This document shows positions 5,219 to 22,999 of a DNA stretch of 61,063 nucleotides, in pieces (the first letter of the stretch is position 1; each line of letters starts with the position of its first letter). Origin of the DNA: an uncultured Clostridia bacterium (GTDB taxonomy: Bacteria; Bacillota; Clostridia; Christensenellales; UBA1242); NCBI GenBank assembly GCA_937907645.1, contig CALCWV010000075.1, positions 1 to 61,063 of the forward strand, written 5' to 3'. The notes beneath the pieces were generated by a model. It saw only the letters and a program-made list of their open reading frames with translations, had not been told where the DNA came from and made no database searches. The translations under genes and the position numbers were made by a program.

Positions 5219-8200
5219 TTATTCGTCAAAATCCCCGAAATCATCAAATAAATCGGAATTGTCAATATTCTTTGTTTCTTCTTCAATAACTTCTTTAACT
5301 TCGTCATTAGATTCTTCCTTAACTAAGTCGTCAAAGTCTAATGATAAGTCATCAAAGTTGTGTTCAGCTTCTACAACTGGAGTTACATGATCTTGTTCGT
5401 CCATTGAAAGTTCAGAAATTGAAATTTCTTGGTCGTTATCTGTGAAGATCTTGATATCCAATGCTAAAGCTTGTAATTCTTTAACTAAAACTTTGAATGA
5501 TTCTGGAATTCCTGGTTCAGCGATAGGTTGTCCTTTAACGATAGCTTCGAAAGTCTTAACTCTTCCTACAACATCGTCAGACTTAACTGTGAGCATTTCT
5601 TGAAGAACGTGGCTTGCACCATAAGCTTCAAGAGCCCAAACTTCCATTTCACCGAATCTTTGTCCACCGAACAATGACTTTCCCCCAAGTGGTTGTTGTG
5701 TAATCAATGAGTAAGGTCCGATTGAACGAGCGTGGATCTTAGAATCAACCATGTGTTCAAGTTTAAGCATGTATTTCATACCGATTGTTGTTAAATTGTC
5801 GAATGGTTCTCCAGTTCTTCCATCGTAAAGTTGAACTTTACCATCTGCTGGGAAGTTGTTTTTGATTAACAATTCTTTAATTTCATCACCGTTTGTTCCG
5901 TCGAATACAGGTGTAGCAACCTTCCAGCCTAAGCTTCCTGCTACTAATCCTAAGTGAACCTCAAGAACCTGTCCGATATTCATACGAGATGGAATACCAA
6001 GAGGGTTAAGAACGATATCAAGTGGACGGCCGTTAGCCATAAATGGCATATCAGCCTCTGGAACTACGATAGAAACAACACCCTTGTTCCCGTGACGTCC
6101 AGCCATTTTATCTCCGACTGACAATTTTCTCTTTTGAGCAATTGTAACTCTAACAACTTGTAAAACTCCTGGGTCTAGTTCGTCTTTGTTCTTCTTTGAA
6201 AATACTTGAACATCAACGACTACACCGCCCTTTCCGTGTTTAACACGAAGAGATGTGTCTCTAACTTCTCTAGCTTTATCACCAAAGATAGCACGGAGCA
6301 ATCTCTCTTCAGGAGTGAGTTCTGTTTCTCCCTTAGGAGTAACTTTTCCTACTAGAATGTCGCCCGGTCTAACCTCAGCACCAATTCTAATAATTCCGTC
6401 TTCGTCTAAGTTTTTGAGAGCTTCTTCTCCAAGGTTAGGAATATCTCTTGTGATAGCTTCATCACCAAGCTTAGTTGTTCTGCAAGAAATTTCTTCTTCC
6501 TTCAAGATGATTGTTGTGTATACATCTTCTTTAACTAATCTTTCATTGATGATGATAGCGTCTTCGTAGTTATATCCTTCCCAGTTCATATATCCAACTA
6601 AAACGTTCTTACCTAAAGCAAGTTCTCCGTTTTGTGTTGCATATCCGTCATAAATAACGTCTCCAGCTTTAACTTTCTCACCTTTCTCTACGCAAGGTTT
6701 TTGATTGTTACATGTTTCGCCGTTTGTTCTTTCGAATTTTGTTAATTGATAAGTATCTTCGCTTCCGTCGTCACATAAGATTCTGATTTCATCTGCGCTA
6801 ACGTAGCTTACCTTACCAGAATGTCTTGCAAGACCAACATGTCCACTATCGTGAGCAACTTTGTATTCAAGTCCTGTTCCTACGATTGGGGATTCAGGTC
6901 TAAGTACAGGCACAGCCTGTCTTTGCATGTTAGCTCCCATGAGCGCTCTGTTTGTTTCGTCAGAGTTAACGAAAGGAATAAGTGATGTAGCAACTGAAAC
7001 GAATTGTCTAGGTGATACATCCATATAATCTACTTTGCTTGCTGGAACTATCACAACTGACTCTGCGTGACGGCAGATAACTTGTTTATTAACAAATCTT
7101 CCTTCTTCGTCAAGAGGTTCATTCGCTTGGCAAATAAATGATGTATCTTCAACGTCAGCCATATAATATTTGTAATCTTTTGAAACAACTCCTGTTTCCT
7201 TGTTAACTTTTCTATAAGGTGTTTCTAAGAATCCATATTCATTTACTTTTACATATGAAGCAAGAGTATCAATCAAACCAATGCTTTGTCCTTCTGGTGT
7301 TTCGATAGCACAGATTCTTCCATAGTGTGTGTAGTGAATATCACGAACACCAACGTCCGCTCTTTCCTTCTTAACACCTCCAGGTCCTACTGCAGATGTT
7401 CTTCTCTTTTGAGAAAGGCCTGACAATGGGTTGTTTTGATCCATTAATTGTGATAATTGTGATTGTGCAATAAAATCTCTCAAAGCTTTGTTTACAGACT
7501 TAGGATTGATGATTTGTGATGGTGTAACTTCAGAAAGTTCTTTTCCTTGCAAAGTTTCTTTGATGTTTGCTGTTAACTTTTGAACACCAGTTCTAAATGC
7601 TTTGTTGAATAAATCCCCAACTGTGCAAAGTTTTTTGTTTGATAAGTGGTCAACTTTATCTACTCCAGCGATTCCCTCTAAAACATCGAGATAGCAGCTG
7701 ATTGTAGCTAAAATATCATCCATTGTAAGTGTTGTAATAACTAAGTTCTTGGCATTTTCTTTAATTGCCTCTAATCTCTTTTCCTTAGACTTATTTGCCT
7801 TTAAGATTTGTTGTAATTCTGGATAGTAAACTTCTTCTGTAATTCCAAGTGCTCTTTCGTCGCATGGAATGATGTTTGAAAGTCTAACTCTTGCGTTACC
7901 TCTCATTAAGTGTTTCTTTCCGTTTACTTGTACCCAAACTTCATTAACGCCAGCGTCTTGAACTTTTCTTGCACTCTCTTCTGTGAAGATTTCGCCTGCT
8001 TTTACGATAACTTCGTCGTCTGCGATTACATTTTCAAAAGCAACTAATCCTGGCAAACGATTTGCAAGTCCAAGTTTCTTGTTGAATTTGTATCTACCGA
8101 CTCTTGAGAGGTTGTAGTATGCATCTGTGAAGAAAATCATATTGATCCAGTTTCTTGTAGATTCAACTGAAGGAACATCGGCTGGACGTGTTTTCTTTGC

Positions 8201-8905
8201 AAATTCAAGCAATGCTTCGTCTTGTGATTTTTGAGGTTCTCTTTCAAGAGCCATTCTAATATATTTGTTATCTCCAAATAACTGAGCGATTTCTGTTTCT
8301 GTAAAACCAAAGCATTTTAAGAAAATTCCAATTGAGATCTTGTATTGTCTATCGAATACAATCTTAACAGCTTCGTTAGCTCCCTGTTCAATTTCAATCC
8401 AGAATCCTCTTTCTGGGATCATTTGAGCTCTGAGAGTTGCGTTGTCATCTTTTTCTCTTGTTAAATATACGCTTGGTGCACGAACGATTTGATTCAATAC
8501 TACTCTTTCAATTCCGTTGCAAACAAATGACCCGTTGCTGGTCATTAAAGGCATGTCACCAAAAAATACTTCCTGTTCAGTTGTTTCACCTGTTTCGTCA
8601 ACTACGAAACGAGCTTTAACTTTCATTGGAACAGAATATGTAGCGTTTCTTCTCTTACATTCTTTCAATGTATATTTAGGAGCATCGCCCATTGTAAGTT
8701 CGCCAAAGTACAACTTAGACTTTCCGCTATAGTCTACAACAGGTGAAAATTCATCAAGAACTTCCCTAATGCCGTTTTCAATAAAGTTTTTATAAGAGTC
8801 CTTTTGGATTCCTAGAAGATCTGGCATTGGAGCAATATCTTCATGTTTAGCAAAATTGTATCTTTCTGCTCTTCCATATTTTTCTTTTTTAATACTAATT
8901 GCCAT
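5219..8905 (-). CDS. rpoB: DNA-directed RNA polymerase subunit beta (1228 aa, with acidic C-terminal extension)
   Basis: Conserved motifs GRHGNKGVVS and GGQRFGEMEVWALEAYGA are present. I moved the start to ATG 8905 (MAISIKKEKYGR...), which has AAGGAG 7 nt upstream (8913-8918). The ORF-track start at 8974 adds 23 residues, has no RBS and overlaps the leader hairpin. Confidence 0.96.
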   Translation of the reverse strand: MAISIKKEKYGRAERYNFAKHEDIAPMPDLLGIQKDSYKNFIENGIREVLDEFSPVVDYSGKSKLYFGELTMGDAPKYTLKECKRRNATYSVPMKVKARFVVDETGETTEQEVFFGDMPLMTSNGSFVCNGIERVVLNQIVRAPSVYLTREKDDNATLRAQMIPERGFWIEIEQGANEAVKIVFDRQYKISIGIFLKCFGFTETEIAQLFGDNKYIRMALEREPQKSQDEALLEFAKKTRPADVPSVESTRNWINMIFFTDAYYNLSRVGRYKFNKKLGLANRLPGLVAFENVIADDEVIVKAGEIFTEESARKVQDAGVNEVWVQVNGKKHLMRGNARVRLSNIIPCDERALGITEEVYYPELQQILKANKSKEKRLEAIKENAKNLVITTLTMDDILATISCYLDVLEGIAGVDKVDHLSNKKLCTVGDLFNKAFRTGVQKLTANIKETLQGKELSEVTPSQIINPKSVNKALRDFIAQSQLSQLMDQNNPLSGLSQKRRTSAVGPGGVKKERADVGVRDIHYTHYGRICAIETPEGQSIGLIDTLASYVKVNEYGFLETPYRKVNKETGVVSKDYKYYMADVEDTSFICQANEPLDEEGRFVNKQVICRHAESVVIVPASKVDYMDVSPRQFVSVATSLIPFVNSDETNRALMGANMQRQAVPVLRPESPIVGTGLEYKVAHDSGHVGLARHSGKVSYVSADEIRILCDDGSEDTYQLTKFERTNGETCNNQKPCVEKGEKVKAGDVIYDGYATQNGELALGKNVLVGYMNWEGYNYEDAIIINERLVKEDVYTTIILKEEEISCRTTKLGDEAITRDIPNLGEEALKNLDEDGIIRIGAEVRPGDILVGKVTPKGETELTPEERLLRAIFGDKAREVRDTSLRVKHGKGGVVVDVQVFSKKNKDELDPGVLQVVRVTIAQKRKLSVGDKMAGRHGNKGVVSIVVPEADMPFMANGRPLDIVLNPLGIPSRMNIGQVLEVHLGLVAGSLGWKVATPVFDGTNGDEIKELLIKNNFPADGKVQLYDGRTGEPFDNLTTIGMKYMLKLEHMVDSKIHARSIGPYSLITQQPLGGKSLFGGQRFGEMEVWALEAYGASHVLQEMLTVKSDDVVGRVKTFEAIVKGQPIAEPGIPESFKVLVKELQALALDIKIFTDNDQEISISELSMDEQDHVTPVVEAEHNFDDLSLDFDDLVKEESNDEVKEVIEEETKNIDNSDLFDDFGDFDE

Positions 8906-8946: not shown

Positions 8947-8992
8947 AAAAAAAAGGGCGGACGATACAAAACAAGGTATCGCCAAAACGCCC
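8947..8992 (-). terminator. Intrinsic-terminator-like attenuator hairpin in the rpoB leader
   Basis: On the minus strand: GGGCG / CGCCC outer stem (8955-8959 with 8988-8992), then an inner 8-position helix with 7 pairs and one A-C mismatch (8960-8967 with 8976-8983) and an 8-nt loop, followed by T8 (complement of 8947-8954). It sits between the predicted promoter (9049-9077) and the rpoB ATG (8905). Confidence 0.6.
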
Positions 8993-9048: not shown

Positions 9049-9077
9049 ATTTTACACTTATAAAAATGTTTTGTCAA
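9049..9077 (-). promoter_or_regulatory. Sigma-A-type promoter upstream of rpoB
   Basis: On the minus strand: TTGACA (9077-9072), a 17-nt spacer, then TAAAAT (9054-9049). The predicted +1 is near 9042. Confidence 0.45.
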
Positions 9078-9157
9078 GCGATAATTGTAACTTTTTTTAC
9101 TTTTTCCTATATTTTTTGCCGATTTTCTAGGTAAAAATATTTTTTAGGTAAAAACTA

Positions 9158-12100
9158 TTATGCCATTCTAAGTGTCTTTTCGAAAACAAGTGTTGACAAT
9201 CCATTGATATTATTGTCGTTATCGTATGGAGTTGTCCAAGGATTAAGAGAAACTTTAGACTCTTCAATTCTATAATAATCGTCGCCACTCTTTATATAGT
9301 AGTACTTATTTGCTTCGTCATAGTAGACATCTTCATATGTGCCTGCATTTAGAGAGCCTTTAACTGGTTTATCCTTTCCCTCTTCTTTCTGAGTTTGTCC
9401 AACAAATTTACCATCTACAAGTGAATATTTTTGAATATCTTTAATATCATTTTCCAATGTGACAGAACTACTTACATTTTTAGCAAAAGTATAGTAAAGG
9501 TCCTCTGAAGGGTCTATTCTTTGCTCTTGTGTAGTAGTCTTGCCCTTATTGTACCAGTTGCAAACGCTCCAGCCAAGTTCATTTTGATTTAAAGTAAGTG
9601 ATACACCACTTTCTGCTGGGTCAGCTCTAACCATAAGAAGGGTTGTTGGGCTTCCATTAGCTGGATTTAGTACATTTTCATAAGTTGTAGGAATAAAGTT
9701 CAAGACATTTGCGGTCTTCTTATCTGTTACTGAATTTCGGTCAAACAAATCACCATTTTCATTGTCGATTTTAACTCCTACGCCTTCATAGACTTTAGAA
9801 CCACTTAATCCAATTCCATTTTCTTCGTCAAATGAAGTTATCTGCGTTGTTGCTGCAGTCGTACTCTTATTTTCAATTGTAACTTCATACGTTGTAATTG
9901 TATAGATATTCTCAAGCTCTATTCTATAGGTTACTGCATTTTCTCCTTCACCTTTAGTTGAGCCTATGATAGCTCCAACGTTTACTGAAATTCCTACTGA
10001 ATATGAGAATGCATTCACGTAAACCTTAGCAAGTGAGTACGCATTAGTAATTTTTACACTGCCTGCGTTACGTCCAACAAAGCCTCCTACATACACTTCT
10101 GCAAGCATCCCTTCAACTTTAAGGTCATGTTTGTAAACTGCTATATTGCTCATTTCAACATTAGTGTTTGTGTATCCAACGATTCCTCCAAGATAATTTC
10201 TTGAAGAGATATCACCGTCCATAACAATTCTCTCTAAAGTCGTTAGTGATGTTTCTGTTGCGCTCGAGTATCCGATAATTCCTCCGACATAGTCAACAGT
10301 GTTGGTCAAGCTAACGTTTTCAATTTCAAAAGATTGTCCCATGTAAACATCTGAAAGAAACCCTTTGATCATGAATCCTACGATTCCACCAACACCTTTT
10401 GGAATATATGTTTGAACAGAGAACACATTTGATTGAGAGCCACTTCCCGTTACAACGATATCGCTGAGGTTTCCTGCGTTTTCACCTACGACAAGCCCAC
10501 CAAAGCTGTACGCTTTTATAAGCATGTTTTCGTTTACGTTAACTGTTACAGTTTTTACATCTACGCTCTTTGATAATCCGCCAAATGCAAAGCCAGCTCT
10601 ATCCGCAATTGCATAAGCACTTGTGCTGTAAACTTGAACGTCTTGAATTTTTATTTGATCAGATGTTGCGAATGCGTATCCAACTGCATTCCCTGCATAA
10701 GATACACTACTGATATTTGATCCATTGTAAATTCCTGTTGTGATAGATGCTCTTGCACTTTCTGAAGGAATAAATGTTGATTTAGCCCCAACTGTAGTTG
10801 TTATGTTCTTTACATAACCTTTATTTTTAACAAGCCCAACTACACCACCAACAATGTTCTTTCCTGAAACAATAACTGTTGATGTATCCTGTCCTGCGTT
10901 GTCTGTTAGACTGCTCTTCACAGCAACGTTTTCAATTGTTGCGTTTTCAACCGTTCCAACAAGTGACCCAACAATAGGAACATTTGGGAAGTTAACAATC
11001 TCTGGAACAAGCGTTAAATTCATGATTCCAGCGTGTTGAGGTCTATTTGCACTTGGAGATGTTGAAGTCTTGATACTTCCAATAAGTCCAGCGCTGCTTG
11101 CCGCCTTTCCTGATGTGATATCTGCACTTGTAAGACTCATTCCATTTCCTTCAATAATTCCATAGAAGTCTGTCTTGTATGATGTGATATCTACGTCATT
11201 AAGGTCAATATCTTTTATTATTCTGAAGTATCCATCTCTGCCTAAACTCATATAATTTAGGAATGTGTCGGCTGATGTAACAAGATATGGATTCAACATT
11301 GTTCCCGGTTGTGGAACGTCTTCTTCATATCTATATTTGTATGTTGTTTTTCCGTTCTCTTCTTCTTTGCCATCTTCGACTCTGATTGAACTTGCGATTA
11401 TATTTGCTGTTACAAGCTCCAATCTTCCTTCAGCAAGAGTGACATCGTTGAATGGATATTGAATATTTTGTACCCACATCCAAACGTTATTGTAATTGTC
11501 GCCATATGCATAGCTTTCAAAGTTTGCTCTGTTGCCAAATTCATCTATTTTTAACTGATTAACACCTTTGACAACTAATGGGTGCAATGATTGGTTAATG
11601 CCATCATCTTTCAAATAGTAGCAATTCTTGAAAGTTCCCGTTCCTTGCCCTTCAATGCTTGTTTCTGCAACGAAGTAGTAGTTTGTCTGCTTGTTGCTGT
11701 CCAAGATTGATGTGGAGAAACAGTTTGTTACTGTTCCTGAGTTCTTGTAAATAAATCCTGAGCTACTTGACTTAGTTGAGATAGGAATATTTGAGTATGA
11801 GTCGCGAACCACACCTCTGTTTGTATGAACAGCTCCAGCTACTTGAACGTTGGAAATAAGCTCGCTTCCGTCAGCTGCGTCAGAGTAAATTCTTGTGTTT
11901 ACGACTACCCCTGAGCAATATGATGTCATGATAACACCGTTTTCGCTGTTCATGTTTACGAGCCCAGCTGTGTTAAAGTTTGTGTTTTGCTCAGTTATAT
12001 TCTCCAGTTTTCCATCTTTGAAATATGAGCTTGCAATTAGCTTAGTGTTTTGTCCAACAAGTCCTGCAAGTGACGCTCCGTTTGTTCTAATAGAAGCTGT

Positions 12101-15100
12101 TACCTGTGAATTTGTAATTGTTCCTGCGTTTGACCCCACAATTCCAGCTACATATGAGCTAGCATTTGTGTTTGAGTTAACAAATGTGAGATTTCCGGAA
12201 ACATTAGCGTTTGTGATTGTTCCTGAGTTTCTTGAGGCAACACCACCGAATATAACTGCGTCTGTTGACGAAGACACAATGTTTACTGGTTGCTCATCAC
12301 TTCCAAATACCACTTTTAAGTTCTTGATAATTGAATCTTGGCTTACTTCCGAGAAGATTCCAAGTTCGCTGTCAGCGAGATTGTATGTTCCCCCACTAAA
12401 TATGATGTTCTTTCCATTTCCGTCAAGTGAAGCAAATATTCCGTTGATTGCTCTGTAATCTTCTGGAGTGATAGTAATATCATTGATGAGGATGTAGTGA
12501 GCGTTTGCCCCCATTGACTTCAAGTTGTCGTAGTTAGTGATTGGGTTTGGAGTATCCTCTGCTCCCATGATGTATGTTGCGAAAGTAAACTCTGAAAGAA
12601 GATTCTGCTTTTTTCCTTCTTGATAATCAATTATAGAATAAGTTCCGTCTTCTTCATCTCTTTGATACCCAGCTTTATATGTAAATGAGTAAATCTTGTT
12701 CACATTTGGATCATGCTCAATCTTAACGCTGTATTCTAAATCTCTGAAGTCAAAATATTTGTTTGATATTCTTCCATTCTTTATTTCAATCTTAGTAAAC
12801 TTTGTGTTATCTGAATCCTTTTGATTCCAGTCAACGACTTCGTTTTCATCGTTTTTGAAGTAAACTGTCCATTTCCCGTCCGATGTAGCATTCTGCATGA
12901 ATTCTTTGATCTTATTTAAAACATCTCCATTTGATGAATCGTATTCCAAATATTTTTCAAGGTCAATTGAAAGTTCATTATTTCCACTGATCGCAACCGG
13001 AATTATTCCATCTTGATAATTCTTAACAATGTCTGCTGGAATAAATTCATTCCCATAAGCATCCTTTGTGTTGAAGATATATTCCATAATCTTGACGTTC
13101 GAACTTGATGAAGCTGAAATAACTTTTCCGTCAACATCTGTTCTTGATCCGCTAACGATAAGTTGGAATGTTCCTTCGTTGGCATAATCAATTTCTCTGC
13201 TGATAACCTTGAGATAGTATTTTCCGTTTTCGACTTCAATCTGAGCTAAGCTTGGATTGCTTGTCGTAACTTGAACAGAGCTTTCCTCAAAGCCATTGTT
13301 CACTACTGTAAGGCCATATCTTAATCCTTTAGCGATATAATACTTCTGATCTTCAAGAGTTTTGTCATCGATTGACACATAAATTGTATATTGTGTGTTA
13401 ATTTTATATGTCAAACTCTCAGCATATATCTCGTTTTCGTTGTTTCCAATGAGTCTTACGTTGAGTCTAATATTAGATCCGTCTTTTAAGAATCTTGTGT
13501 ATCCGAACATATATCTAATAAAGAATTGTCCGTCAAAGTTCGAGTTCACTGTAACTAGTTTTTCTTTGCTAATTGAAATGCCTTTTGATGTGTAAATTGC
13601 ACCTGGAACGTTTTTAAAAGCTGCACCATCTTGATACAATATTTCGAATGAACCTGACGTTGAATCATATGCATAATTGCCGTCGGCGTTCTCAATTATA
13701 AATGTCTTAAAGTCTACATCGGCTGGAGCTAATGTCACAGAAATCATTCCATATTGAGAAGGTACAATTTTTTGAGAAGCAATTCTCTCGTTTTGATCTG
13801 CATAGTTTTCAAAGATAACCCCGTCCAGCGACTGATCATCGAGGATTAAAGTAATTTCTTTGTATGCAACATCTGAGTTGCTGCCAGCATAGAATCTAAT
13901 CTTATAAGTTCCGAAAATGTTCTTGGAATATCTGTTTTTATATTCATCCGAACTCTTGTTAATCTTGATTTCCACATTTTTAACAAGAGAATTGCTTATA
14001 GGTGTTATTGTCACAGTGAATAGTTTTTCTGCATTTTCCTGAATATAATCTTCACCTGTAATTGTGTAAAGCAAATTTTCACTCTCGTCATCTGACTCTA
14101 TCGTGATTGTGTCACTTTGAGTTGATCCGCTGTTGATAATGTATGTGTCATACAATGATTTAACTGATTTTGCTCCCTCATAATATTTAAGAGTTAGCTC
14201 GCATGAGTTCGTGTAATTATAACTATATTCCACGCCATCAACTTTTACCAAAAGACTAGATGAAAGTGTTAATTTGTCGGAAGTATCCTTTTTAATTACG
14301 GTCCCAGTTTTACTGATTGTAATTAAATTGCTTGAAATGTCATAAGCTGCATGCTGTGCAAACGTAGTGTCATTTGCTGGAACTATGCTTGTCTTTATTT
14401 CCTCATTTGGAGCAAGCTGGATAGTCATGTTATCAACATAGATTTCGCCGTCCTTTGTGATATCAAAATTGCTTGTCGTATTTAATTCTGTTGATTTTGT
14501 TCTATAGCTTGGTGAAACATTGATAATTAAGTTGTTGTCCGCAACTAAATTTGCAGATGCCACACTTCCCCATCTCACATCACCATATGAGAAGAATGAT
14601 GTGTTTTCCATTACATTATGATTGTAGAAATTCATTATGTAAAGGTAGATGTCCTGTGATTCTCTAGCATTAAGAGAATTATATATTTTTAATTTTGCCA
14701 CGCCTGTTCCACGGATAATAAGATTGTTCATATTGTCCACTGAAACAAGACTGCTTTCTGATTTAATTGTTATATCATTGCTTGTGATTTTGAAAGGTCT
14801 AAGTTTGCTGTCAACGCTAATTGTGTTGAACTTTGCATCCAAAATCTTTTGTGCATTTTGAAGGTTTGCTGAGGTATATTGTCCATTCTCATCCAAATAT
14901 TTCTCAGCTTTGAAGTAGTAAGCTGTAAACATCTTTGGTGCGGTTTCCCCTTCTCCCACTTTCAACTCAACAGACATATCTCCTGTTTTGATTTCAACGA
15001 CTGATGTTGTGTTTCCATCAAACCAATATTGTGCATATTTAAGTTTTAAGGTTGGACTAAATTCTAAGTAGCTTCCATAATGGTCGTCTAATAATCCAGA

Positions 15101-18100
15101 GAACATAAACTCTTCTCCCGATTCAACTTCTACATGCTTTCTTGTTGAATATGATTTGAAAGTAATTCCGTCGCTTACTAATGATTCACTTTTTGCTGTG
15201 TTATTAAATGCGATGAAACTTAATTTTTTATCATTGTCGCTTTCAAAGGTAAAATCTTTTGACTCTGTATATCTTACAACCATTGAAGCTTCGTCGTTCA
15301 AGCTCTCGCCGTCGTCAATTTCTTCGATATCGAGATAAGCTACTTTTTGAAGTTTATCAGCATACGCTAAAACTGCTCCAACCTTATAACCTGAAGCGAA
15401 AGTCCTAACTTTAAAGTTCTGTAAACTACACTCTTCTCCGTCGGTTGAGGATTTCAAAGCCCCAACAATTCCTCCCACATAAGAAGATGAAATGTTAGAA
15501 TGAACTCTTCCACTAACAATTGTTTTTGAAGTTCCGTCGGCTGTGCCAAGGATGTTATTTGTAGACATTCCGACAACAGCTCCTGCATAAACAGTTTTAT
15601 TATAATTTTCTATTGATGAAATTAGTGAAATGTTAGCATATACTAAGTTTCCAAGTAGTCCACTAAGCTGGATTTTCTCACTTTGATCCTCAATCACGCC
15701 TTCATTTTTTCCTGCAAGGCCACCGACATAAATAGCTGTGTTGATCTCTGAAGTTATAAGGAGTTGTCCTTCCATAACAACAGGAATATTTGTCTTCTTT
15801 GTTATATTTGCTTTGTTTAATCCGGCAATTGCTCCGATATATACATCCCCAGTTGTTTTTACTGTAACTCTTGATTGTTGCAAACAAACTGATATGTTAT
15901 TGAGCTCCGCATAGTTTTCACCCGCTAAAAGTCCAATGTATGTTTCGTTTGTGTCCCCCGTTTGGGCCTCGATTGAGCCCTCGAAGATGATATTTTCAAT
16001 TTTAGCTGTTTCACCTAGAATTGCGAATAAACCGTAATAAGCACGTTGTTCAATTACTGTCCCGCTCGTAATCTTAATTCCAGAAATTTTTGCATCTCCT
16101 TCACCTACGATTGAGCCTTCAAACTTACCACCATTTGCTGTGAATGGGAAACGCCCTGCATATGCGGACATATCAATAAGGCTTGTGATCCTATAGTGTG
16201 ACTTCATTGCGGAATCTGAATTTCCAATTGCAAGCACATCTTCTGGTGTTTCCAATTGATATGGATTTTTTTCTGTTCCGCTTTGATATGTAACTTTAAA
16301 ACTCTTAAATCTTGCGCCATCCTTGATTTTCCCATTTGAAACCCATTCTTTTGCGCAGATATATATTGTGCTCTCTGAACTATAATCGTCCTCGCTATCC
16401 AAAACGCCTGAATCAAGTCTAATAGTTACAAGCCATGTCCCGTCTTTAATTTTTTCCTTTACAGGAGTCAAAATTAATGCTCGTTTAGATCCGTCTTTAT
16501 TTTCAATTACAAAGTCGATATCCAAAACAGTGGCACTAAGTGGTGCAGCATTAACTACAAAGCTCTTTTCCATATTATTCTTTGTAAATGAGAACTCTGT
16601 TCCTGACAAAGAAACGTTTACTTGATCTACTGATGTAAATGATTTAATTTCGACGTTAACTGCAAATGCTTTTGTGAGTCCATATTGTCTAATCGTTGCA
16701 TATAGTGTGAAATTGGAATTTGACGCAGTTGGAAGTGCTGCTATTGTCAATGTTCTTGTGTTGAATTGTACAAGTCTATCTATTGTATAAGTTTCACCAT
16801 AAACCATTGTCGAAACTTTTCTGTTCCTGCTGTCATAGATATCTTTGTCTGCTGTCCAATAAACATAAGCATCATTGAATGTTGTTTCATAATATGTTTG
16901 ATTTTCATAAGAGTAGAAATTGAATGCATTTGAGCTTTTAACTTCATAATTGAAAGTCTTTGTTGAAAGGTCTGTGGAAACATCATCTCCTGTGAAAAGA
17001 GTAATTGAGTTTGCAAGTCTTCTGTCAGAGTAAACACTGAACTCCTCAGCAAGCTTGTAGGATTCAATTGTAAGTCTTACTTCCTTTGTTAAATCTTTTA
17101 AAGTAAAGTCTTCAACCTTATATCCGATAATACTGAAATTCACAATCGTTTTTCCATTTGAATTTGTTGTGATTTCATATACTCCTCTGTCGTCTGTTTC
17201 TTTGATAGTTGAAATTGTTCCGTTGGCTGAGAAGCTTATTTCTTTTATAACATCTATTCCATTGTTTGAAGATATCTTAATTCCTGCCTTTTCTCCAAAA
17301 GCATTTTCTTCATATGGATTTCTTATTATGATTGTTGCGTTCTCATCATCGCCTACTGCATTTTGCGTTTTTGTGAAGCTATAAACACTTGTGTTTGCCC
17401 CTTCTCTATTGATATATAAATTATCAAAAGTTTCAACGACTCTTATTGTTGCATTAATTGTTCTTCCGTTGTCTAAACGGATTTCGAATGTGTCGTTCCC
17501 AACTGCGACTGGAGAAATCTTTAATTGCAAGTAACTCTTTTCTCCATCGACCCTCTGTCCAACATATTGAACGCGGGCAACACCTGTGTTTTGCAGAGAT
17601 GTAACTGTTGCTCTTTCAAACACGTGGTCAGCATAAATTCCTTCAAACATAGCATCTCCACCTGTGGTTGAAACGTAAATTCCATAGGACTGATTTGTAG
17701 AGCTATAATTATATTCTTCTTGAGTGAAATTGAGCTCTGTAGCACCTGGCTCAATTGTATATCTGATGCTATATGTTATTTTATCGCTATCATCTCTATC
17801 AAAAGGACTGTTTAATATGAGTGCAATTGTTCCATCGTCTGCAGCTGCTCCCGACTTTCCTCTAACCTGAATAGGCTTTGTTAAATCTGTGATTGAGTTA
17901 CCAGATGATAAAATTGAATTTCCCTGTCTAACATCAATATTTTCTGGGAATGTCAAAGTGCAGTCTGTGTAAGATGAATCCTCAGCATATACTGAGATTT
18001 TTAAATTTTTCCATCCATAATCCCCAACATTGTAGTTGTAGAATTTATAGTTGTTTCCTGAGTCTGTTTCTTCAAGCTCGTTGACTTTGATTGTTTTTGG

Positions 18101-19303
18101 CTTTACATAAATTTCAACGTTGAAATCTTTAGTAGCTGATACAGATTCGTCATCAGTTCCAAAGAAGTTGTTATAATATAAATTAAATTTTACTTTTGCA
18201 GAACCCCTCTTTGCGATCTTGCTTCTAATCGTATAAAAATACTCTTTATAATCTTTTCCACTTTCATTCCTAACATCGTCTAATGCAATTGAAATTTTGG
18301 AAATGTCTTCCGTGCTAATTTCATAGTCAAAGCAGTATTGTGTATCTTCAGATTTTGGAACTTTCACAATAATTTGTGAATAAGTTCTATCCTCTGTTGA
18401 ATATGTAACAAGACTTGCGCCTGTGATTTGTCCTCCTGCGAGAGTTGTAAACTCAAAAGCGTCGTTATCTAAACCTTTAAAGGCATAGAATTTAACTGGC
18501 GAATAAAGTTTATTTGTTGTTCCATTGTCATATTCTGCAATAAAGTAGAATGACTGTGTGTCATAAACACTTTTTGAAAATGTTTTATATTCTCCGTTTT
18601 CCTTTATTTCGCTTTGTGTGAATATCAAAGAGCCTTTGTCTTCAGAAAGCCTGCAGTTTGTAAACTCTAGACATTCAAGTAGAGATTCTGCTCCGTCTTG
18701 CCCAATGAGTTTTGCTCCGTCAGCGTTATATCCCTGATCACTTAAGATACTTGATTCATTTACTGTCCCATTATTTACAAAATAGAATACCATATCTCGT
18801 TCTGTGCTGTTATTTGAGAAATTGAACATAGCAGCGCTTGGAACAAGATCTGTGTTCGGCGAAACAAATACATGTTCATCTTTTAGTGTTATTGAAGAGC
18901 TATACTCTCTAACATTTATTTTTATTTGGGCTGCCTTATTTCCGCCCTCTTTCGTTTTCGCAATAAGAGTTGCCGTTCCGCCGCTCACGCCTTCAACAAC
19001 GACCTCGGTCACACCGCTTCCCTTATATTCTGCTTGAAATTTGATTTTTGCTGTTTCTGATTCTCCAGATGAATATCCAGAATCATCAGTTGATGAGAGG
19101 AAAACCTCGCCGTCGTTTATGTAGTCTTCAACTTTGAAGCTTACTGTAACCTCCTCACCCACCTTGATATTTACTTCTTCATTTGTGCTTGGGACTATTG
19201 AAATATTGTTTGTAGTTTCTCCGCAAGATGTGACAAACACTGCCGCGGTACCTAGTAACACGGACATTGCGCTCATTAAAAGAATCTTGTTTATTTTCTT
19301 CAT
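9158..19303 (-). CDS. Giant surface lipoprotein (3381 aa) with Ig-like domains and three GLUG-repeat beta-helix modules
   Basis: Uninterrupted 10.1-kb ORF with RBS AAAGGGGAAG upstream. Signal peptide MKKINKILLMSAMSVLLGTAAVFVTSC carries the lipobox VTSC. An N-terminal Big_2-like Ig domain ends ...GTATLIAKTKEGGNKAAQIKINV. Three modules each open with NPY/NPI...(Y)xLxNDIdl...F.G.fdGnG and are followed by repeats such as YIGLLAGEN, YIGAIAGLN, YVGGLAGKNEGVI and YVGGIVGAL. Module positions are nt about 16270-15350, 12552-11300 and 11296-9900. Confidence 0.9.
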   Translation of the reverse strand: MKKINKILLMSAMSVLLGTAAVFVTSCGETTNNISIVPSTNEEVNIKVGEEVTVSFKVEDYINDGEVFLSSTDDSGYSSGESETAKIKFQAEYKGSGVTEVVVEGVSGGTATLIAKTKEGGNKAAQIKINVREYSSSITLKDEHVFVSPNTDLVPSAAMFNFSNNSTERDMVFYFVNNGTVNESSILSDQGYNADGAKLIGQDGAESLLECLEFTNCRLSEDKGSLIFTQSEIKENGEYKTFSKSVYDTQSFYFIAEYDNGTTNKLYSPVKFYAFKGLDNDAFEFTTLAGGQITGASLVTYSTEDRTYSQIIVKVPKSEDTQYCFDYEISTEDISKISIALDDVRNESGKDYKEYFYTIRSKIAKRGSAKVKFNLYYNNFFGTDDESVSATKDFNVEIYVKPKTIKVNELEETDSGNNYKFYNYNVGDYGWKNLKISVYAEDSSYTDCTLTFPENIDVRQGNSILSSGNSITDLTKPIQVRGKSGAAADDGTIALILNSPFDRDDSDKITYSIRYTIEPGATELNFTQEEYNYSSTNQSYGIYVSTTGGDAMFEGIYADHVFERATVTSLQNTGVARVQYVGQRVDGEKSYLQLKISPVAVGNDTFEIRLDNGRTINATIRVVETFDNLYINREGANTSVYSFTKTQNAVGDDENATIIIRNPYEENAFGEKAGIKISSNNGIDVIKEISFSANGTISTIKETDDRGVYEITTNSNGKTIVNFSIIGYKVEDFTLKDLTKEVRLTIESYKLAEEFSVYSDRRLANSITLFTGDDVSTDLSTKTFNYEVKSSNAFNFYSYENQTYYETTFNDAYVYWTADKDIYDSRNRKVSTMVYGETYTIDRLVQFNTRTLTIAALPTASNSNFTLYATIRQYGLTKAFAVNVEIKSFTSVDQVNVSLSGTEFSFTKNNMEKSFVVNAAPLSATVLDIDFVIENKDGSKRALILTPVKEKIKDGTWLVTIRLDSGVLDSEDDYSSESTIYICAKEWVSNGKIKDGARFKSFKVTYQSGTEKNPYQLETPEDVLAIGNSDSAMKSHYRITSLIDMSAYAGRFPFTANGGKFEGSIVGEGDAKISGIKITSGTVIEQRAYYGLFAILGETAKIENIIFEGSIEAQTGDTNETYIGLLAGENYAELNNISVCLQQSRVTVKTTGDVYIGAIAGLNKANITKKTNIPVVMEGQLLITSEINTAIYVGGLAGKNEGVIEDQSEKIQLSGLLGNLVYANISLISSIENYNKTVYAGAVVGMSTNNILGTADGTSKTIVSGRVHSNISSSYVGGIVGALKSSTDGEECSLQNFKVRTFASGYKVGAVLAYADKLQKVAYLDIEEIDDGESLNDEASMVVRYTESKDFTFESDNDKKLSFIAFNNTAKSESLVSDGITFKSYSTRKHVEVESGEEFMFSGLLDDHYGSYLEFSPTLKLKYAQYWFDGNTTSVVEIKTGDMSVELKVGEGETAPKMFTAYYFKAEKYLDENGQYTSANLQNAQKILDAKFNTISVDSKLRPFKITSNDITIKSESSLVSVDNMNNLIIRGTGVAKLKIYNSLNARESQDIYLYIMNFYNHNVMENTSFFSYGDVRWGSVASANLVADNNLIINVSPSYRTKSTELNTTSNFDITKDGEIYVDNMTIQLAPNEEIKTSIVPANDTTFAQHAAYDISSNLITISKTGTVIKKDTSDKLTLSSSLLVKVDGVEYSYNYTNSCELTLKYYEGAKSVKSLYDTYIINSGSTQSDTITIESDDESENLLYTITGEDYIQENAEKLFTVTITPISNSLVKNVEIKINKSSDEYKNRYSKNIFGTYKIRFYAGSNSDVAYKEITLILDDQSLDGVIFENYADQNERIASQKIVPSQYGMISVTLAPADVDFKTFIIENADGNYAYDSTSGSFEILYQDGAAFKNVPGAIYTSKGISISKEKLVTVNSNFDGQFFIRYMFGYTRFLKDGSNIRLNVRLIGNNENEIYAESLTYKINTQYTIYVSIDDKTLEDQKYYIAKGLRYGLTVVNNGFEESSVQVTTSNPSLAQIEVENGKYYLKVISREIDYANEGTFQLIVSGSRTDVDGKVISASSSSNVKIMEYIFNTKDAYGNEFIPADIVKNYQDGIIPVAISGNNELSIDLEKYLEYDSSNGDVLNKIKEFMQNATSDGKWTVYFKNDENEVVDWNQKDSDNTKFTKIEIKNGRISNKYFDFRDLEYSVKIEHDPNVNKIYSFTYKAGYQRDEEDGTYSIIDYQEGKKQNLLSEFTFATYIMGAEDTPNPITNYDNLKSMGANAHYILINDITITPEDYRAINGIFASLDGNGKNIIFSGGTYNLADSELGIFSEVSQDSIIKNLKVVFGSDEQPVNIVSSSTDAVIFGGVASRNSGTITNANVSGNLTFVNSNTNASSYVAGIVGSNAGTITNSQVTASIRTNGASLAGLVGQNTKLIASSYFKDGKLENITEQNTNFNTAGLVNMNSENGVIMTSYCSGVVVNTRIYSDAADGSELISNVQVAGAVHTNRGVVRDSYSNIPISTKSSSSGFIYKNSGTVTNCFSTSILDSNKQTNYYFVAETSIEGQGTGTFKNCYYLKDDGINQSLHPLVVKGVNQLKIDEFGNRANFESYAYGDNYNNVWMWVQNIQYPFNDVTLAEGRLELVTANIIASSIRVEDGKEEENGKTTYKYRYEEDVPQPGTMLNPYLVTSADTFLNYMSLGRDGYFRIIKDIDLNDVDITSYKTDFYGIIEGNGMSLTSADITSGKAASSAGLIGSIKTSTSPSANRPQHAGIMNLTLVPEIVNFPNVPIVGSLVGTVENATIENVAVKSSLTDNAGQDTSTVIVSGKNIVGGVVGLVKNKGYVKNITTTVGAKSTFIPSESARASITTGIYNGSNISSVSYAGNAVGYAFATSDQIKIQDVQVYSTSAYAIADRAGFAFGGLSKSVDVKTVTVNVNENMLIKAYSFGGLVVGENAGNLSDIVVTGSGSQSNVFSVQTYIPKGVGGIVGFMIKGFLSDVYMGQSFEIENVSLTNTVDYVGGIIGYSSATETSLTTLERIVMDGDISSRNYLGGIVGYTNTNVEMSNIAVYKHDLKVEGMLAEVYVGGFVGRNAGSVKITNAYSLAKVYVNAFSYSVGISVNVGAIIGSTKGEGENAVTYRIELENIYTITTYEVTIENKSTTAATTQITSFDEENGIGLSGSKVYEGVGVKIDNENGDLFDRNSVTDKKTANVLNFIPTTYENVLNPANGSPTTLLMVRADPAESGVSLTLNQNELGWSVCNWYNKGKTTTQEQRIDPSEDLYYTFAKNVSSSVTLENDIKDIQKYSLVDGKFVGQTQKEEGKDKPVKGSLNAGTYEDVYYDEANKYYYIKSGDDYYRIEESKVSLNPWTTPYDNDNNINGLSTLVFEKTLRMA

Positions 19304-19410
19304 ATTTCTTCCCCTTTACATCATCAAAAGTCTTGTCTGAATGCACCGAAGTTTATTCAATCAAAACAGCTGTTTTTTTTCAAACGGTGACGCCTCAATA
19401 AATACTATGT

Positions 19411-19459
19411 ATGTTATATTAAGCAACTTAAATTCTAGGCAAAATGCACAATATAACAT
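19411..19459 (-). repeat. 10-bp perfect inverted repeat between the ATPase gene and the giant gene
   Basis: ATGTTATATT (19411-19420) and AATATAACAT (19450-19459) are separated by 29 nt. The repeat is AU-rich and has no T-run after it. Confidence 0.4.
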
Positions 19460-19474
19460 CACATAGTTTCTATC

Positions 19475-22183
19475 TTAGCCACCGTGAATAGTCTTAATAT
19501 AATCTAGAGCTGTAATTTGAACCATTGTTCTGCTTGAAGGGCCAGTAATGAAGAATGCTTGCCCTCTTCCCGCCGTAACAATAGCATTTTGTTCTTCTTC
19601 GTTAATTCCACCAGATTTTTTGTAAAGCTCAACCAAGTCGTTGATATCATTTGGAGCGAGGGCGAAAATCAAGGAATATTGACAAGCGTTAATAACCGCT
19701 GTCGACTGTTTCTTAATTTCGTCTGATCCAACGAAGTCGGCAAGGTTCTGAGTAATAACTACCTGCATACCTGCATACTTTCTGATACGTTTTGCCATCT
19801 GTGCCATGAATTCCAAGGCAATAGGATATTTCGAGTTGATGAAAATGTGTGCCTCATCGACTACTACGATAATCTTTCTTGTATTCTTGCCATCTGGGTG
19901 ATATTTAGCGTTAAAGTCTTTGTTGTTAATAATTTCGTTGTTCAAATATCTGAACACCAATAACATTTGTGCGTTTGTGAGCAATCCGTTATTGTTTGCA
20001 ATCAATGATTGGAAGTTGAAGCAAACCAAGTTTTCGTTTGTAACGATAGATGTCGGCCCGTTCCAAAGTTTACTGTTTCTTCCGCCCGTTGCGAACTTTT
20101 TGATGTATGTTTCAACAGTCATAAGATTCTTCAAAAGGAAGTCATCCTTTGCTGTCTTAATTCTCTCAAGAATCAAATTGTACAAATCGTCGAAGATAGG
20201 ATAGTCTTCTGGCTTCTTATCTCCAAGATATGTGTTTTCATCAATTCCCTTGAGCTTGTATGTATCAACGATAAGTGAGTTCAATACTTCGAAAGCATCA
20301 CTGCTGATTCCCTCCAAGATTGATCTGAAGAATTGTTCCAAGAACTGCAAATGTTGTGAGAATGAGTCATCGACTTTTCTTTCAACAGCTTTTTTAACTT
20401 TTTCCACGATCTCGAACTCATCAAGCTCTTCATCACTCTTCTTTTCTTCCTCTGTTTCGTCCAAAGATGTGATAACGTGGAAAGGATTCAAAATGCCTTG
20501 TTGTGATGAACCTACATCGATGTACTTTCCTCCAAGATTTTGTGTCATTGTAAAATATTCTTTTTCAGGGTCGCAGATGAAAATCTTACTATTGTCTGCT
20601 GCGAGGTTTGTAAGTAACGTTTTAACAGCAAAACTCTTTCCTGATCCAGACTTTCCGATAACCATCATGTTTGAGTTAACACGAACAGCGTCTCTTTGGA
20701 AGAAATCGACGAACACTGGATATTCGTTATCCCCGATATATATTCCGTTTTCATCCTGCAATGCACTTGAGATGAATGGGAACACAGCGGCGAGCGTTGA
20801 AGTTGGAATACCTCTTCTTGTGTTTGCGATATTATCTCTTCTTGAGATGTTTGCACTGATGAAAGCATCAACTTGTCTAGCGAACATTTCACTGAACTTG
20901 AATCCGCTTTGCTTAAGCATAGCTTTAACATCTCTTCGAGCTGCGTCTTCGCAAGTTACATATGTATTTACATCAAACAATTGTTGATTGTTGTTTTTTA
21001 ACTGAACGAGCAAATCTCTAAGTGTGTCAATGTGTGTTTGCAATTCGATCTGACTACTGCTTCTTCCTGAACGATAGAGCTTTGACTCCATATCCATGAT
21101 AGCTTTATCGATGCTTCTTTCAGAGTTTGACTTTGGAAGCAAGCTGAACTTCATAACCACTCTTGTTCTGTCGAGAAGGAAGATCTCTGATCCCCAAGCA
21201 TTTCCAACATTCAAAGGATAGTCAGTTATAAGAAAAGTTCTAAAAGCTTTGTCCCCATCCAAAATGTACTTGGCTGATTTAAATTGCAATTTCTTTGGCT
21301 TTGCCCATTCAACATATTTATTGATTGGAAGAGATTCAACTTCTCTCTCATCAAATTCTTTTCCATAGTTTGCCTTAAGGAAAACAGCGAGGTCTTGTCC
21401 ATAAAGTTTCTTCGCAGTCATTGGAGCAAGTGAACTTGCAAGCGCTGAGATCATTCCGTTTGTTGTTCCCTCAAGAGTTGATTTGTCTTTATCATATACA
21501 ATGAGATAGAAGTGATCTTGATAAACTTTTTCACGTCTGTTAAGGTTTTCCATGAAGGAAACTCTTTCTTCGAAAACAGGTGCTCTTGAATCAACTTCGG
21601 CGTCTGTTACTTGTCCTTCATATTGCATTTCCAAAAGAAGTTCATACTTTTTGTTTTCGTTGTAAATGTAATTATCTAAAAGCATAGCTCTGTTGAGTTT
21701 AATAATTGAACATGTTTGGTCAGGTGTCAATCTTCTAAGAGCGTTCGCGAAACTTTCAATAACGTTATCCTGTGTATATTCATTTAACAATCCAAAAAGC
21801 ACAGGTTTAATTTCTAAAACTTGAGCATAGTATCCGCCAAAGTCTATGTATGAGTTTGCATCAATCTTTGTAAAAGGAATCATTTCGTTGATGTCTGACT
21901 TCTTTGATTTCCCGTCTGAAACAGAAAACTTTTTCTTCTGTGCCAAGAATCTAAACAAGTGAGATATTGTCACATAGAATCTTTCATCATCAGCGACCTT
22001 GATAAATAGTGAGAGCCCAACAATGAGCCACACTAAAGCGATCCAAATATGATTTGCAAAGTTAGATGCAAAAAGAACAACTGCGACAGCTACAACTATG
22101 ACAGCAAGTATAAGGTCGAAAGCAGTTACTCCTTTAACAAACTCTAATTTTACTTTTGTTTTTCTGGGGATAATTCTTTGCAT
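19475..22183 (-). CDS. VirB4/TrsE/PrgJ-family type IV secretion ATPase with an N-terminal VirB3/PrgI-like two-TM domain
   Basis: 902 aa. The N-terminus has two hydrophobic helices (FDLILAVIVVAVAVVLFASNF; IWIALVWLIVGLSLFIKV). The Walker A motif is MMVIGKSGSGKSFAVKTLL and the Walker B motif is KIIVVVDEAHIF. The C-terminal part (VITQNLADF...INACQYSLIFALAPNDINDL...GRGQAFF) is typical of VirB4-like ATPases. The central part (YAQVLEIKPVLFGLLNEYTQDNVIESFANALRRL) resembles the VirB4 N-domain. Confidence 0.75.
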   Translation of the reverse strand: MQRIIPRKTKVKLEFVKGVTAFDLILAVIVVAVAVVLFASNFANHIWIALVWLIVGLSLFIKVADDERFYVTISHLFRFLAQKKKFSVSDGKSKKSDINEMIPFTKIDANSYIDFGGYYAQVLEIKPVLFGLLNEYTQDNVIESFANALRRLTPDQTCSIIKLNRAMLLDNYIYNENKKYELLLEMQYEGQVTDAEVDSRAPVFEERVSFMENLNRREKVYQDHFYLIVYDKDKSTLEGTTNGMISALASSLAPMTAKKLYGQDLAVFLKANYGKEFDEREVESLPINKYVEWAKPKKLQFKSAKYILDGDKAFRTFLITDYPLNVGNAWGSEIFLLDRTRVVMKFSLLPKSNSERSIDKAIMDMESKLYRSGRSSSQIELQTHIDTLRDLLVQLKNNNQQLFDVNTYVTCEDAARRDVKAMLKQSGFKFSEMFARQVDAFISANISRRDNIANTRRGIPTSTLAAVFPFISSALQDENGIYIGDNEYPVFVDFFQRDAVRVNSNMMVIGKSGSGKSFAVKTLLTNLAADNSKIFICDPEKEYFTMTQNLGGKYIDVGSSQQGILNPFHVITSLDETEEEKKSDEELDEFEIVEKVKKAVERKVDDSFSQHLQFLEQFFRSILEGISSDAFEVLNSLIVDTYKLKGIDENTYLGDKKPEDYPIFDDLYNLILERIKTAKDDFLLKNLMTVETYIKKFATGGRNSKLWNGPTSIVTNENLVCFNFQSLIANNNGLLTNAQMLLVFRYLNNEIINNKDFNAKYHPDGKNTRKIIVVVDEAHIFINSKYPIALEFMAQMAKRIRKYAGMQVVITQNLADFVGSDEIKKQSTAVINACQYSLIFALAPNDINDLVELYKKSGGINEEEQNAIVTAGRGQAFFITGPSSRTMVQITALDYIKTIHGG

Positions 22184-22291: not shown

Positions 22292-22999
22292 TTATTTACA
22301 GTTTACAAGTAAGTGGTTTAATTTATTATGCTTCTTTGCAACTGTAATTATCCTATCTGTTATTACCTCATTTTTTTTAACAATTAATTCGTTATTAAAT
22401 CCCAAAATATCGCATATTGCTATTTTTCCAAGTAATTTTTGTGAATAAATATTAGTTTTATATGGCAATTGCACGGAAATATTCTTTATTTCCTTATTTT
22501 CAGCGTATTTATTATTTTGAATTTCCACTTTTTGCATAATATTTTTATCAATTCTTTGGAATTTATTTATTTTTTTTCTTTTAATTCTTTTTTCACTGAA
22601 AATTAAATATTCTCCGTCCCATATAGAAATATTTTGCGGGCATATTTCGCATTTTTCAGTAATTAATTTCTGAATTTTTTTATTATTTAAATAAATTTCT
22701 TTTACTCTCCCTAAATTAATTCCATCCGCTGAAATAACCTGCTTCCCAATAGGTGAATTATTCTGCATATTTTCACCAAAAGTTAGCATATTGCTGTTTT
22801 TTATCATAACAAATTCTTGGACTGATAAAATACTTTTACAGTCTAGATATTTTATTTTCTCTTCGGTTTCATCACATACCAAAAATGCATATACGCTCAT
22901 AGTTTGAAAATCTATCAGTGGACAAAGGACGTATCCAACGCAAGCTCCCTCTTCTTGGGAGATAATCTTTTTTGAAATTATTTCTGTTAATCTTTCCAT
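22292..22999 (-). CDS. Hypothetical protein with PRC-barrel-like (YlmC/YmxH-type) segments
   Basis: 235-aa ORF. Segments IISQEEGACVGYVL and IGKQVISADGINLGRVKEIYLNNKKIQKLI resemble PRC-barrel motifs. This is weak by-eye evidence. Confidence 0.35.
   Translation of the reverse strand: MERLTEIISKKIISQEEGACVGYVLCPLIDFQTMSVYAFLVCDETEEKIKYLDCKSILSVQEFVMIKNSNMLTFGENMQNNSPIGKQVISADGINLGRVKEIYLNNKKIQKLITEKCEICPQNISIWDGEYLIFSEKRIKRKKINKFQRIDKNIMQKVEIQNNKYAENKEIKNISVQLPYKTNIYSQKLLGKIAICDILGFNNELIVKKNEVITDRIITVAKKHNKLNHLLVNCK

Follow-up and report, generated by a model that had tools for sequence, protein, structure and literature searches.

Giant surface proteins are common, and in the rplJL-rpoBC operon of Escherichia coli an attenuator lies between rplL and rpoB. 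In the integrative and conjugative elements (ICEs) of Mycoplasma, conjugation requires the surface lipoprotein CDS14, which has been proposed to initiate cell contact (PMC6030558). Patescibacteria carry chromosomal type IV secretion systems (T4SS) that lack a relaxase and are thought to serve an epibiotic lifestyle, with VirB3-, VirB6-, VirB8- and VirB2-like genes near virB4 (PMC12102498). Here we analyse a stretch of 61,063 nt (contig CALCWV010000075.1, hereafter the window) from an uncultured Clostridia bacterium of the UBA1242 lineage, in which a 10-kb gene encoding a giant lipoprotein lies between a gene for a VirB4-like ATPase and rpoB. Matches in farm-animal gut runs, sporulation genes at the loci of relatives and a low GC content agree circumstantially with this lineage. 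Members of UBA1242 have genomes under 1 Mb, and the paper describing them mentions only 'hypothetical membrane-bound proteins' that might mediate cell interactions (PMC12306168); the literature searched holds no mention of VirB4 or type IV secretion together with UBA1242.

The locus resembles the Mycoplasma ICE module (the VirB4 protein CDS17/TraE and CDS14) in that genes for a VirB4 motor and a surface lipoprotein occur together and the ATPase matches a Mollicutes ICE family end to end (NCBIfam NF045975, Mbov_0397 ICE ATPase; 567 bits, cut-off 590). It differs from that module in several ways: the 61 kb that were read contain neither a mobile element nor genes for a relaxase, coupling protein or DDE transposase, inheritance beside rpoBC is apparently vertical, and the lipoprotein, which is likened to CDS14 by role, is far larger. 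As in the T4SS of Patescibacteria, bacteria with reduced genomes and a probable dependence on partners carry a monoderm-type, apparently non-conjugative VirB4 as a fixed part of the chromosome, but the phylum is a different one and only a PRC-like gene and the giant lipoprotein gene adjoin VirB4 at the locus. Both parallels are best taken as functional analogies. The giant protein itself recalls the GLUG regions of M26 IgA1 metalloprotease-like proteins (PF07581; PDB 3n6z), with a similar NPY-type cap followed by G-G-[LIV]-[VIA]-G coils, a predicted all-beta and possibly solenoid-like structure and a Pfam Glug match above cut-off on the whole protein. Unlike the M26 proteins, it has no peptidase domain or HExxH motif, distributes three modules over a 3,381-aa fibre of immunoglobulin (Ig)-like domains and carries a lipid anchor in place of LPXTG anchoring or secretion. 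With the E. coli operon the locus shares a co-oriented upstream gene without a full transcription stop and a terminator-like element just before rpoB; here, in contrast, the upstream gene is the giant lipoprotein gene and a strong promoter stands between it and the attenuator.

A conserved pairing of VirB4-like and giant lipoprotein genes

What is unusual at this locus is the operon-like pairing of a 10-kb lipoprotein gene with a VirB4 motor gene. An earlier reading of the window from its letters alone (the sequence-only reading) had remarked on this pairing, and its coordinates for the giant gene were all correct, as were the protein length of 3,381 aa, the co-orientation with rpoB and the distance of 253 bp from the stop to the rpoB ATG at 8905. 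In ten relatives (L081–L090, independent assemblies with RpoB 94–69% identical to that of the window) the VirB4-like gene lies immediately upstream of the giant gene without exception (10/10), and rpoB and then rpoC follow in each of the nine with a contig that continues beyond it. The common order is hflX, DUF1858 (opposite strand), PRC-like, VirB4-like, giant gene, rpoB and rpoC. A PRC-like homologue precedes the VirB4-like gene in 7/7 relatives whose contig reaches that far, detected by tblastn in five and by the same position, length and PRC match in L088 and L090. The VirB4-like and giant genes are 11–61 nt apart in nine relatives and 170 nt apart in the tenth, L090, which is the closest. 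The synteny check which the sequence-only reading had proposed thus finds the order conserved, and the sole break in adjacency is in L083, where two genes for TMEM164-family membrane proteins and a 39-aa open reading frame (ORF) lie before rpoB (L083 20743–22539).

Identity to the window in L081/L082/L083/L084/L085 is 94/87/71/70/69% for RpoB, 90/84/67/68/65% for the VirB4-like protein and 52/36/27/30/29% for the giant protein. Since the order is kept even where identity falls to 69% (RpoB) and 26% (giant protein), there is no insertion relative to near relatives, and the idea that the giant gene had been inserted between rplL and rpoB is not borne out. The giant-gene/rpoB junction has been assembled independently in at least nine other samples, which excludes the misassembly that the sequence-only reading had considered. 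Among the matches listed, none of 80 outgroup rpoB loci (RpoB ≤ 54% identical overall) has a homologue of the VirB4-like or the giant gene. These comparisons of gene order indicate that VirB4-giant-rpoBC is an old, lineage-fixed arrangement in uncultured low-GC gut Clostridia, not a recent insertion.

The sequence-only reading had also described the giant gene as occupying the position normally held by rplJ and rplL. A tblastn search with RplL, RplJ, RplK, RplA and NusG of the B. subtilis group (from locus L035) detected neither an rplJ nor an rplL homologue, whether in the 61-kb window or in the loci of relatives L081–L085. As a control for synteny only, we used Bacillota rpoB loci among the matches listed that had at least 3 kb readable upstream. 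The gene rplL lies upstream of rpoB in 33/68 of these outgroup loci and in 8/28 of the closest, the arrangement being absent from the other 35 and 20 respectively; detachment of rpoBC from rplKAJL is therefore common in Clostridia. Because the model-organism order is missing in about half of the outgroup loci, the premise of an rplJ-rplL replacement is weak, and judged by these loci the giant gene does not fill a slot reserved for rplJL by relatives of its neighbours.

Ratios of non-synonymous to synonymous substitution rates (dN/dS), computed pairwise against L090 (giant protein 89% identical), were 0.12 for the giant gene, 0.034 for rpoB, 0.032 for rpoC, 0.040 for hflX and 0.017 for the VirB4-like gene. 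The value of 0.12 implies that the giant gene is functional and under purifying selection, and the comparison indicates that it evolves fast, in the manner of surface proteins. The pairing occurs in every relative examined and its VirB4 changes no faster than RNA polymerase, which points to a role for type IV secretion hardware not previously described in Gram-positives. In the same pairwise comparison, the dN/dS of the VirB4-like gene is below those of rpoB and rpoC although its dS is about three times higher.

Contigs of a related strain, 90–97% identical to the window, are present in two bovine-gut metatranscriptome runs (X8 and X9) and cover the giant gene in full. Each run has a contig of depth 13–14 that bridges the VirB4-giant junction. 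A 10-kb contig of X9 covers the giant gene at a depth of 12.7, while a separate rpoB contig in this run begins at 9016, just past the predicted start site, with a 2.4-fold higher depth of 30.5; in X8 a single contig of 4,140 nt runs from the 3' part of the giant gene across the spacer into rpoB. Contig depths range over 12.7–14.7 for the giant gene, 13–14 for VirB4 and 23–30 for rpoB. As indicative evidence only, the contigs fit a giant gene transcribed together with VirB4, a start of its own for rpoB and a degree of read-through.

Architecture and variability of the giant protein

The giant protein begins with MKKINKILLMSAMSVLLGTAAVFVTSC, in which a basic n-region and a hydrophobic core are followed by the lipobox V-T-S-C, a match to the pattern [LVI][ASTVI][GAS]C. 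In 16/16 full-length homologues the lipobox ([FIL][TAV][SG]C) is present and Cys27 is invariant, which upholds the lipoprotein call of the sequence-only reading. A public gene call (P0005, 3,372 aa) begins at Met10 (window 19277–19303). We prefer the longer form from the ATG at 19303, because this start has a ribosome-binding site (GGGGAAG) and adds a basic n-region, MKKINK, that is common to the homologues. LPxTG is absent from the entire protein and the C-terminus is not hydrophobic; sortase anchoring was dropped as a candidate for want of LPxTG.

The 16 full-length homologues, found by a word-indexed search, measure 3,315–3,827 aa and range from 100% to 26% identity. A profile of the N-terminal 981 residues, run against 1.84 billion representatives (50% clustering), matches about 95 proteins at E ≤ 1e-30, of which about 75 are 3.2–3.9 kaa long and match the stalk end to end from about residue 28, the rest being fragments.

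AlphaFold2 (AF2) models, built from an alignment of 10 sequences, span residues 28–1008 and 1009–2208. The first of these segments, the stalk, is predicted to be an all-beta string of about 9–10 sandwich domains (mean predicted local distance difference test, pLDDT, 85.3). Its Foldseek matches in PDB, with E down to 2e-24, include gp210, hydin-like ciliary proteins, the S-layer proteins Sap, SbsB and EA1, macroglobulin (MG) domains and contactins. The Big_2-like N-terminal domain of the sequence-only reading stands in part: a family profile of residues ~71–170 matches multi-repeat Big_2 proteins (E 1e-16 to 1e-6), and the four of these that were scanned hold 3–17 genuine Big_2 domains each, but Pfam Big_2 itself (PF02368) has no match on residues 28–500 even at E ≤ 1. 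Profile searches of PDB yield weak matches to 7quz and the LigB-like 2mh4 (E about 0.07).

Three GLUG modules had been placed by the sequence-only reading where we also find them (Table 1). Each has an NP[YI] cap motif at its start, followed by G-G-[LIV]-[VIA]-G repeats, and module 1 aligns by hhalign with module 2 (98.0%, E 2.7e-13) and with module 3 (98.6%, E 8e-16), which indicates that the three are homologous. Pfam Glug (PF07581) scores 23.3 bits on the whole protein against a cut-off of 20.5; by module, the score of module 3 is above this value and those of module 2 and module 1 (10.8 bits) are below it, and Glug is matched at E ≤ 0.01 in 4/10 family members. A family profile matches PDB 3n6z, a 'putative immunoglobulin A1 protease', at E 1.3e-3, and module 3 has numerous invariant GG..G columns. 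Sequence-profile searches of PDB with the stalk, module 1 and modules 2–3 gave no significant match, Pfam scans of eight pieces of the protein returned Glug only, plus noise, NCBIfam had no match for the giant or the PRC-like protein, and a literature search on GLUG lipoproteins returned nothing relevant.

The second AF2 segment is likewise predicted to be all-beta (pLDDT 73). Within it module 1 is modelled at pLDDT 85–95, with about 30 short strands and no long helices, and superposes on a BFVD prediction of a 'putative IgA1 protease' with TMt 0.43; the top Foldseek matches of the whole segment in PDB fall on Ig arrays, not on the solenoid. Residues about 1450–2075 (440–1065 of the segment) are predicted to form about six sandwich domains (pLDDT 70–85), which match cadherin, S-layer and Ig arrays in PDB with E down to 1e-12. 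Pfam has no match in the middle region as a whole.

Conservation peaks at residues 2200–3000, where module 2 is the most conserved, and collapses in the last 250 residues. Along the gene, dN/dS is 0.04–0.09 in modules 2 and 3 and 0.21–0.37 in the tail, which shows an identity of 0.17–0.21 and about 30% gaps against distant homologues. The tail of the related strain found in the bovine-gut runs, both RNA and DNA, has unlike sequence in place of two patches (9323–9419 and 9648–9851), which on this comparison are localised hypervariable cassettes. The replacement patches are similar in length (74 and 187 nt), the gene being otherwise 90–97% identical. DNA repeat searches of the giant gene revealed neither a recent duplication within it nor any invertible segment or tract for phase variation, after which a shufflon-type or slipped-strand switch was dropped as a candidate.

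The window holds a second GLUG lipoprotein gene, a paralogue (Table 1). The two proteins share a lipoprotein start and a tandem double GLUG module (residues 2201–3044 against 2134–3038 in the paralogue; 25% identity, E 7e-33). The giant protein differs from this paralogue in being half its size and in the fixed position of its gene between the VirB4-like gene and rpoB, and the stalk and tail cannot be aligned between the two.

The junction with rpoB

Between the stop of the giant gene at 9158 and the rpoB promoter we found no terminator-like site, and this spacer folds no better than shuffled sequences (z -0.33), in agreement with the sequence-only reading, which had suggested that transcripts could read through into the rpoB leader. 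An equivalent promoter is present in all relatives, matching the consensus at 11–12 of 12 positions where scanned. The leader folds at -37.3 kcal/mol (z -4.07), and promoter, leader and hairpin with T-run occur in all relatives, nearly identical in sequence in the close ones and different in sequence, with the same layout, in the distant ones. As the hairpin is kept in all relatives, it is a feature of rpoBC. Given that rpoB has its own conserved promoter and leader hairpin, read-through from the giant gene, though possible, would lead into a conserved attenuator, and in the sub-lineage of the window the hairpin would be the first terminator that such transcripts meet. In L084 and L085 the giant gene is followed at once by a terminator of hairpin and U-run (-13.8 and -13.5 kcal/mol; z about -4.5), and none is found at that place in L082, L086, L088 or the window.

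A block of about 30 nt, GTTGAATAAGTATTGTGGTGAAGTGTG, lies between the rpoB promoter and the hairpin (window 8906–9077, minus strand) and is near-invariant in relatives down to 87% RpoB identity, as compared in the intergenic regions of L081, L082 and L086–L088; it is possibly a regulatory leader RNA for rpoBC. A search of Rfam with 8700–9400 returned nothing meaningful. At the other end of the spacer, a 17-nt unit present 2.2 times in tandem (ATTTTCTAGGTAAAAACT, plus strand; window 9122–9159) overlaps the stop region of the giant gene.

Table 1. Features of the giant lipoprotein locus in the window, by position
Feature	Position	Strand	Properties and basis
rpoC	1625..5152	minus	Follows rpoB; Pfam Rpb1 domains
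rpoB	5219..8905	minus	ATG at 8905, ribosome-binding site GGAG; Pfam RNA_pol_Rpb2
Terminator-like two-tier GC hairpin + U8, rpoB leader	8947..8992	minus	About 45 nt before the ATG; folding
rpoB promoter	9049..9077	minus	TTGACA-17-TAAAAT, 11/12 consensus match
Spacer after giant-gene stop	9078..9157	minus	No terminator-like site; fold z = -0.33
Giant lipoprotein gene	9158..19303	minus	3,381 codons open; encodes 3,381 aa, 372 kDa
Hypervariable C-terminal tail, predicted membrane-distal end	9161..9898	minus	Residues 3136–3381; identity, gaps, dN/dS
GLUG module 3	9899..11308	minus	Residues 2666–3135; Pfam Glug 21.3 bits, 3n6z profile match
GLUG module 2	11504..12562	minus	Residues 2248–2600; Pfam Glug 17.5 bits, conservation, paralogue alignment
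Middle region	12563..15343	minus	Residues 1321–2247; low-confidence linker, about 6 beta-sandwich domains, small helix/beta unit; AF2, Foldseek
GLUG-type module 1	15344..16279	minus	Residues 1009–1320; predicted beta-solenoid; AF2, hhalign
N-terminal stalk	16280..19222	minus	Residues 28–1008; about 9–10 tandem Ig-like beta-sandwich domains, first Big_2-like; AF2, Foldseek, family profile
Lipoprotein signal peptide	19223..19303	minus	Residues 1–27; lipobox VTSC (Cys27 codon 19223–19225); translation, homologues
Spacer, VirB4-like to giant gene	19304..19474	minus	171 nt; no sigma-70-like promoter on minus strand
VirB4-like ATPase	19475..22183	minus	902 aa, N-terminal membrane anchor; NF045975, Pfam TraG P-loop
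PRC-barrel-like protein	22292..22999	minus	235 aa, third member of conserved block; Pfam PRC, E 1.1e-6
Second GLUG lipoprotein	30270..49742		6,490 aa; paralogue in the same window

Proposed roles and surroundings of the block

We consider it probable, with moderate confidence, that the giant gene encodes a lipid-anchored surface fibre for contact or adhesion, co-expressed with a domesticated VirB4 and without a functional link to rpoBC. The protein would be exported by Sec and then tethered by its Cys27 to the membrane's outer face, and a stalk of about ten Ig-like domains, some 35–40 nm long at roughly 4 nm per domain, would carry the remainder through and past the cell wall. Along the fibre three homologous GLUG-type beta-solenoid modules would alternate with beta-sandwich domains, the conserved modules 2 and 3 forming its core and the fast-evolving distal tail of about 250 aa being the part that faces the diversity of partner or host. 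The giant gene would share a transcription unit with the preceding gene for a VirB4-like membrane ATPase, and together with the PRC-like gene the two would make up a vertically inherited chromosomal block. Its adjacency to rpoBC would be a lineage-fixed order without functional dependence, rpoBC using its own promoter and passing the leader attenuator. In the sub-lineage of the window the giant gene would have lost its own terminator, its transcripts running into the attenuator of the rpoB leader. The data show directly the ORF, its lipobox, the homology of the modules, the predicted folds, the gene order, purifying selection and an occurrence in metatranscriptome assemblies; we infer that the protein is exposed at the surface, adheres and cooperates with VirB4, and likewise what becomes of the read-through transcripts. 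The view of the sequence-only reading, a giant adhesin-like lipoprotein with three GLUG-type modules and an Ig-like N-terminus, is supported.

Several points weigh against this proposal. Support from Pfam Glug is thin, at 23 bits on the whole protein and with the match found at E ≤ 0.01 in so few members of the family, and the predicted beta-solenoid of module 1 depends on an AF2 model made from 10 sequences. Conserved adjacency to VirB4 is no proof that the two proteins act jointly. The RNA contigs derive from a related strain and from runs that possibly contain DNA, and contig depth is a poor measure of expression.

It is unlikely, in our view, that the protein is instead an S-layer-like envelope scaffold independent of VirB4, a structural coat and not a contact fibre. 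The Foldseek matches of its Ig-like arrays do include Sap, EA1, SbsB and SbsC, and the second giant lipoprotein in the window has the same double GLUG module, but the models match any Ig-like array equally well or better (gp210, protocadherins, contactins), genes of S-layer type are usually among the most highly expressed while here the depth of the RNA contigs is about half that of rpoB, and the constant operon-like pairing with VirB4 is left unexplained. A functional coupling to rpoBC, in which read-through would contribute a regulated share of rpoBC transcription and explain the gene order, is quite improbable. The order is conserved in all relatives, the X8 contig links the giant gene and rpoB, and neither the window nor its closer relatives (L082, L086 and L088) have a terminator ahead of the rpoB promoter; a strong promoter nevertheless separates the two genes in every relative, the rpoB contig of X9 begins past this promoter at greater depth, and contigs may merge overlapping transcripts or DNA. 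The promoter and leader hairpin that belong to rpoB itself, together with the terminators after the giant gene in L084 and L085 and the genes inserted in L083, therefore make such coupling unlikely, and the adjacency to rpoB is of little consequence in itself.

We give very little credence to the view that the VirB4-like and giant genes are a decaying ICE remnant, passive between hflX and rpoB and without present function. The full-length match of the ATPase to the Mollicutes ICE VirB4 family, the essential surface lipoprotein CDS14 that Mycoplasma ICEs also encode (PMC6030558) and the absence of both genes from the outgroup rpoB loci noted above would suit such an origin, but Pfam scans of ORFs and a repeat search of the 61-kb window found no integrase, relaxase, coupling protein or flanking repeats, all relatives, even those with RpoB only 69% identical, retain the whole block, and the GC content is even across the region, the giant gene and VirB4-like block resembling their surroundings. 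The dN/dS values, with VirB4 below rpoB, indicate purifying selection, by which the lack of a present function is refuted; an ancient ICE origin of the block is possible. That the product is a secreted or surface enzyme, such as an IgA1-protease-like peptidase or a glycan-degrading enzyme, is hardly credible: the GLUG motif, the match to 3n6z and the BFVD model named as a putative IgA1 protease are set against a homologue alignment in which the protein has neither HExxH nor HxxEH and only 14 histidines, none of them invariant, against the absence of any catalytic or peptidase family of Pfam or NCBIfam on any segment, and against modelled parts that are all beta-sandwich or solenoid. A protease role was rejected for the lack of HExxH.

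The contact fibre that we favour may be part of something larger, although we advance this only as a tentative and rather doubtful proposal. The PRC-like protein, the membrane-anchored VirB4 and the 372-kDa fibre might constitute a minimal, relaxase-less and chromosomally fixed VirB4 contact machine that lets a radiation of genome-reduced gut Clostridia bind partner cells and trade material with them; in the Firmicutes it would be the counterpart of the T4SS of Patescibacteria. If bacteria of the UBA1242 type are partner-dependent, the fibre would be a prime candidate for holding on.

Only housekeeping genes surround the block, both in the window (by Pfam) and in the relatives with long flanks. 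The small DUF1858 gene (window about 23110–23370, plus strand) between hflX and the PRC-like gene is kept wherever the flanks of relatives are readable, and in L084 it is co-oriented with the block. Three ORFs of the window, all on the minus strand, have no Pfam family (54139–56025, 628 aa; 52218–52652, 144 aa; 25061–25717, 218 aa); the 218-aa ORF stays beside hflX in relatives, at 33–69% identity. Downstream of rpoC, the window, L081 and L082 have an MFS transporter and L090 has a BspA-type LRR_5 protein (23618–25863; at least 1,004 aa), so that the downstream neighbour varies among strains. Sporulation genes occur in two of the relatives, namely a SpoIIGA-type peptidase U4 with a sigma factor in L084 (4197–5801) and SpoIIID in L085 (2592–2852), and the lineage therefore is, or descends from, spore-forming Clostridia.

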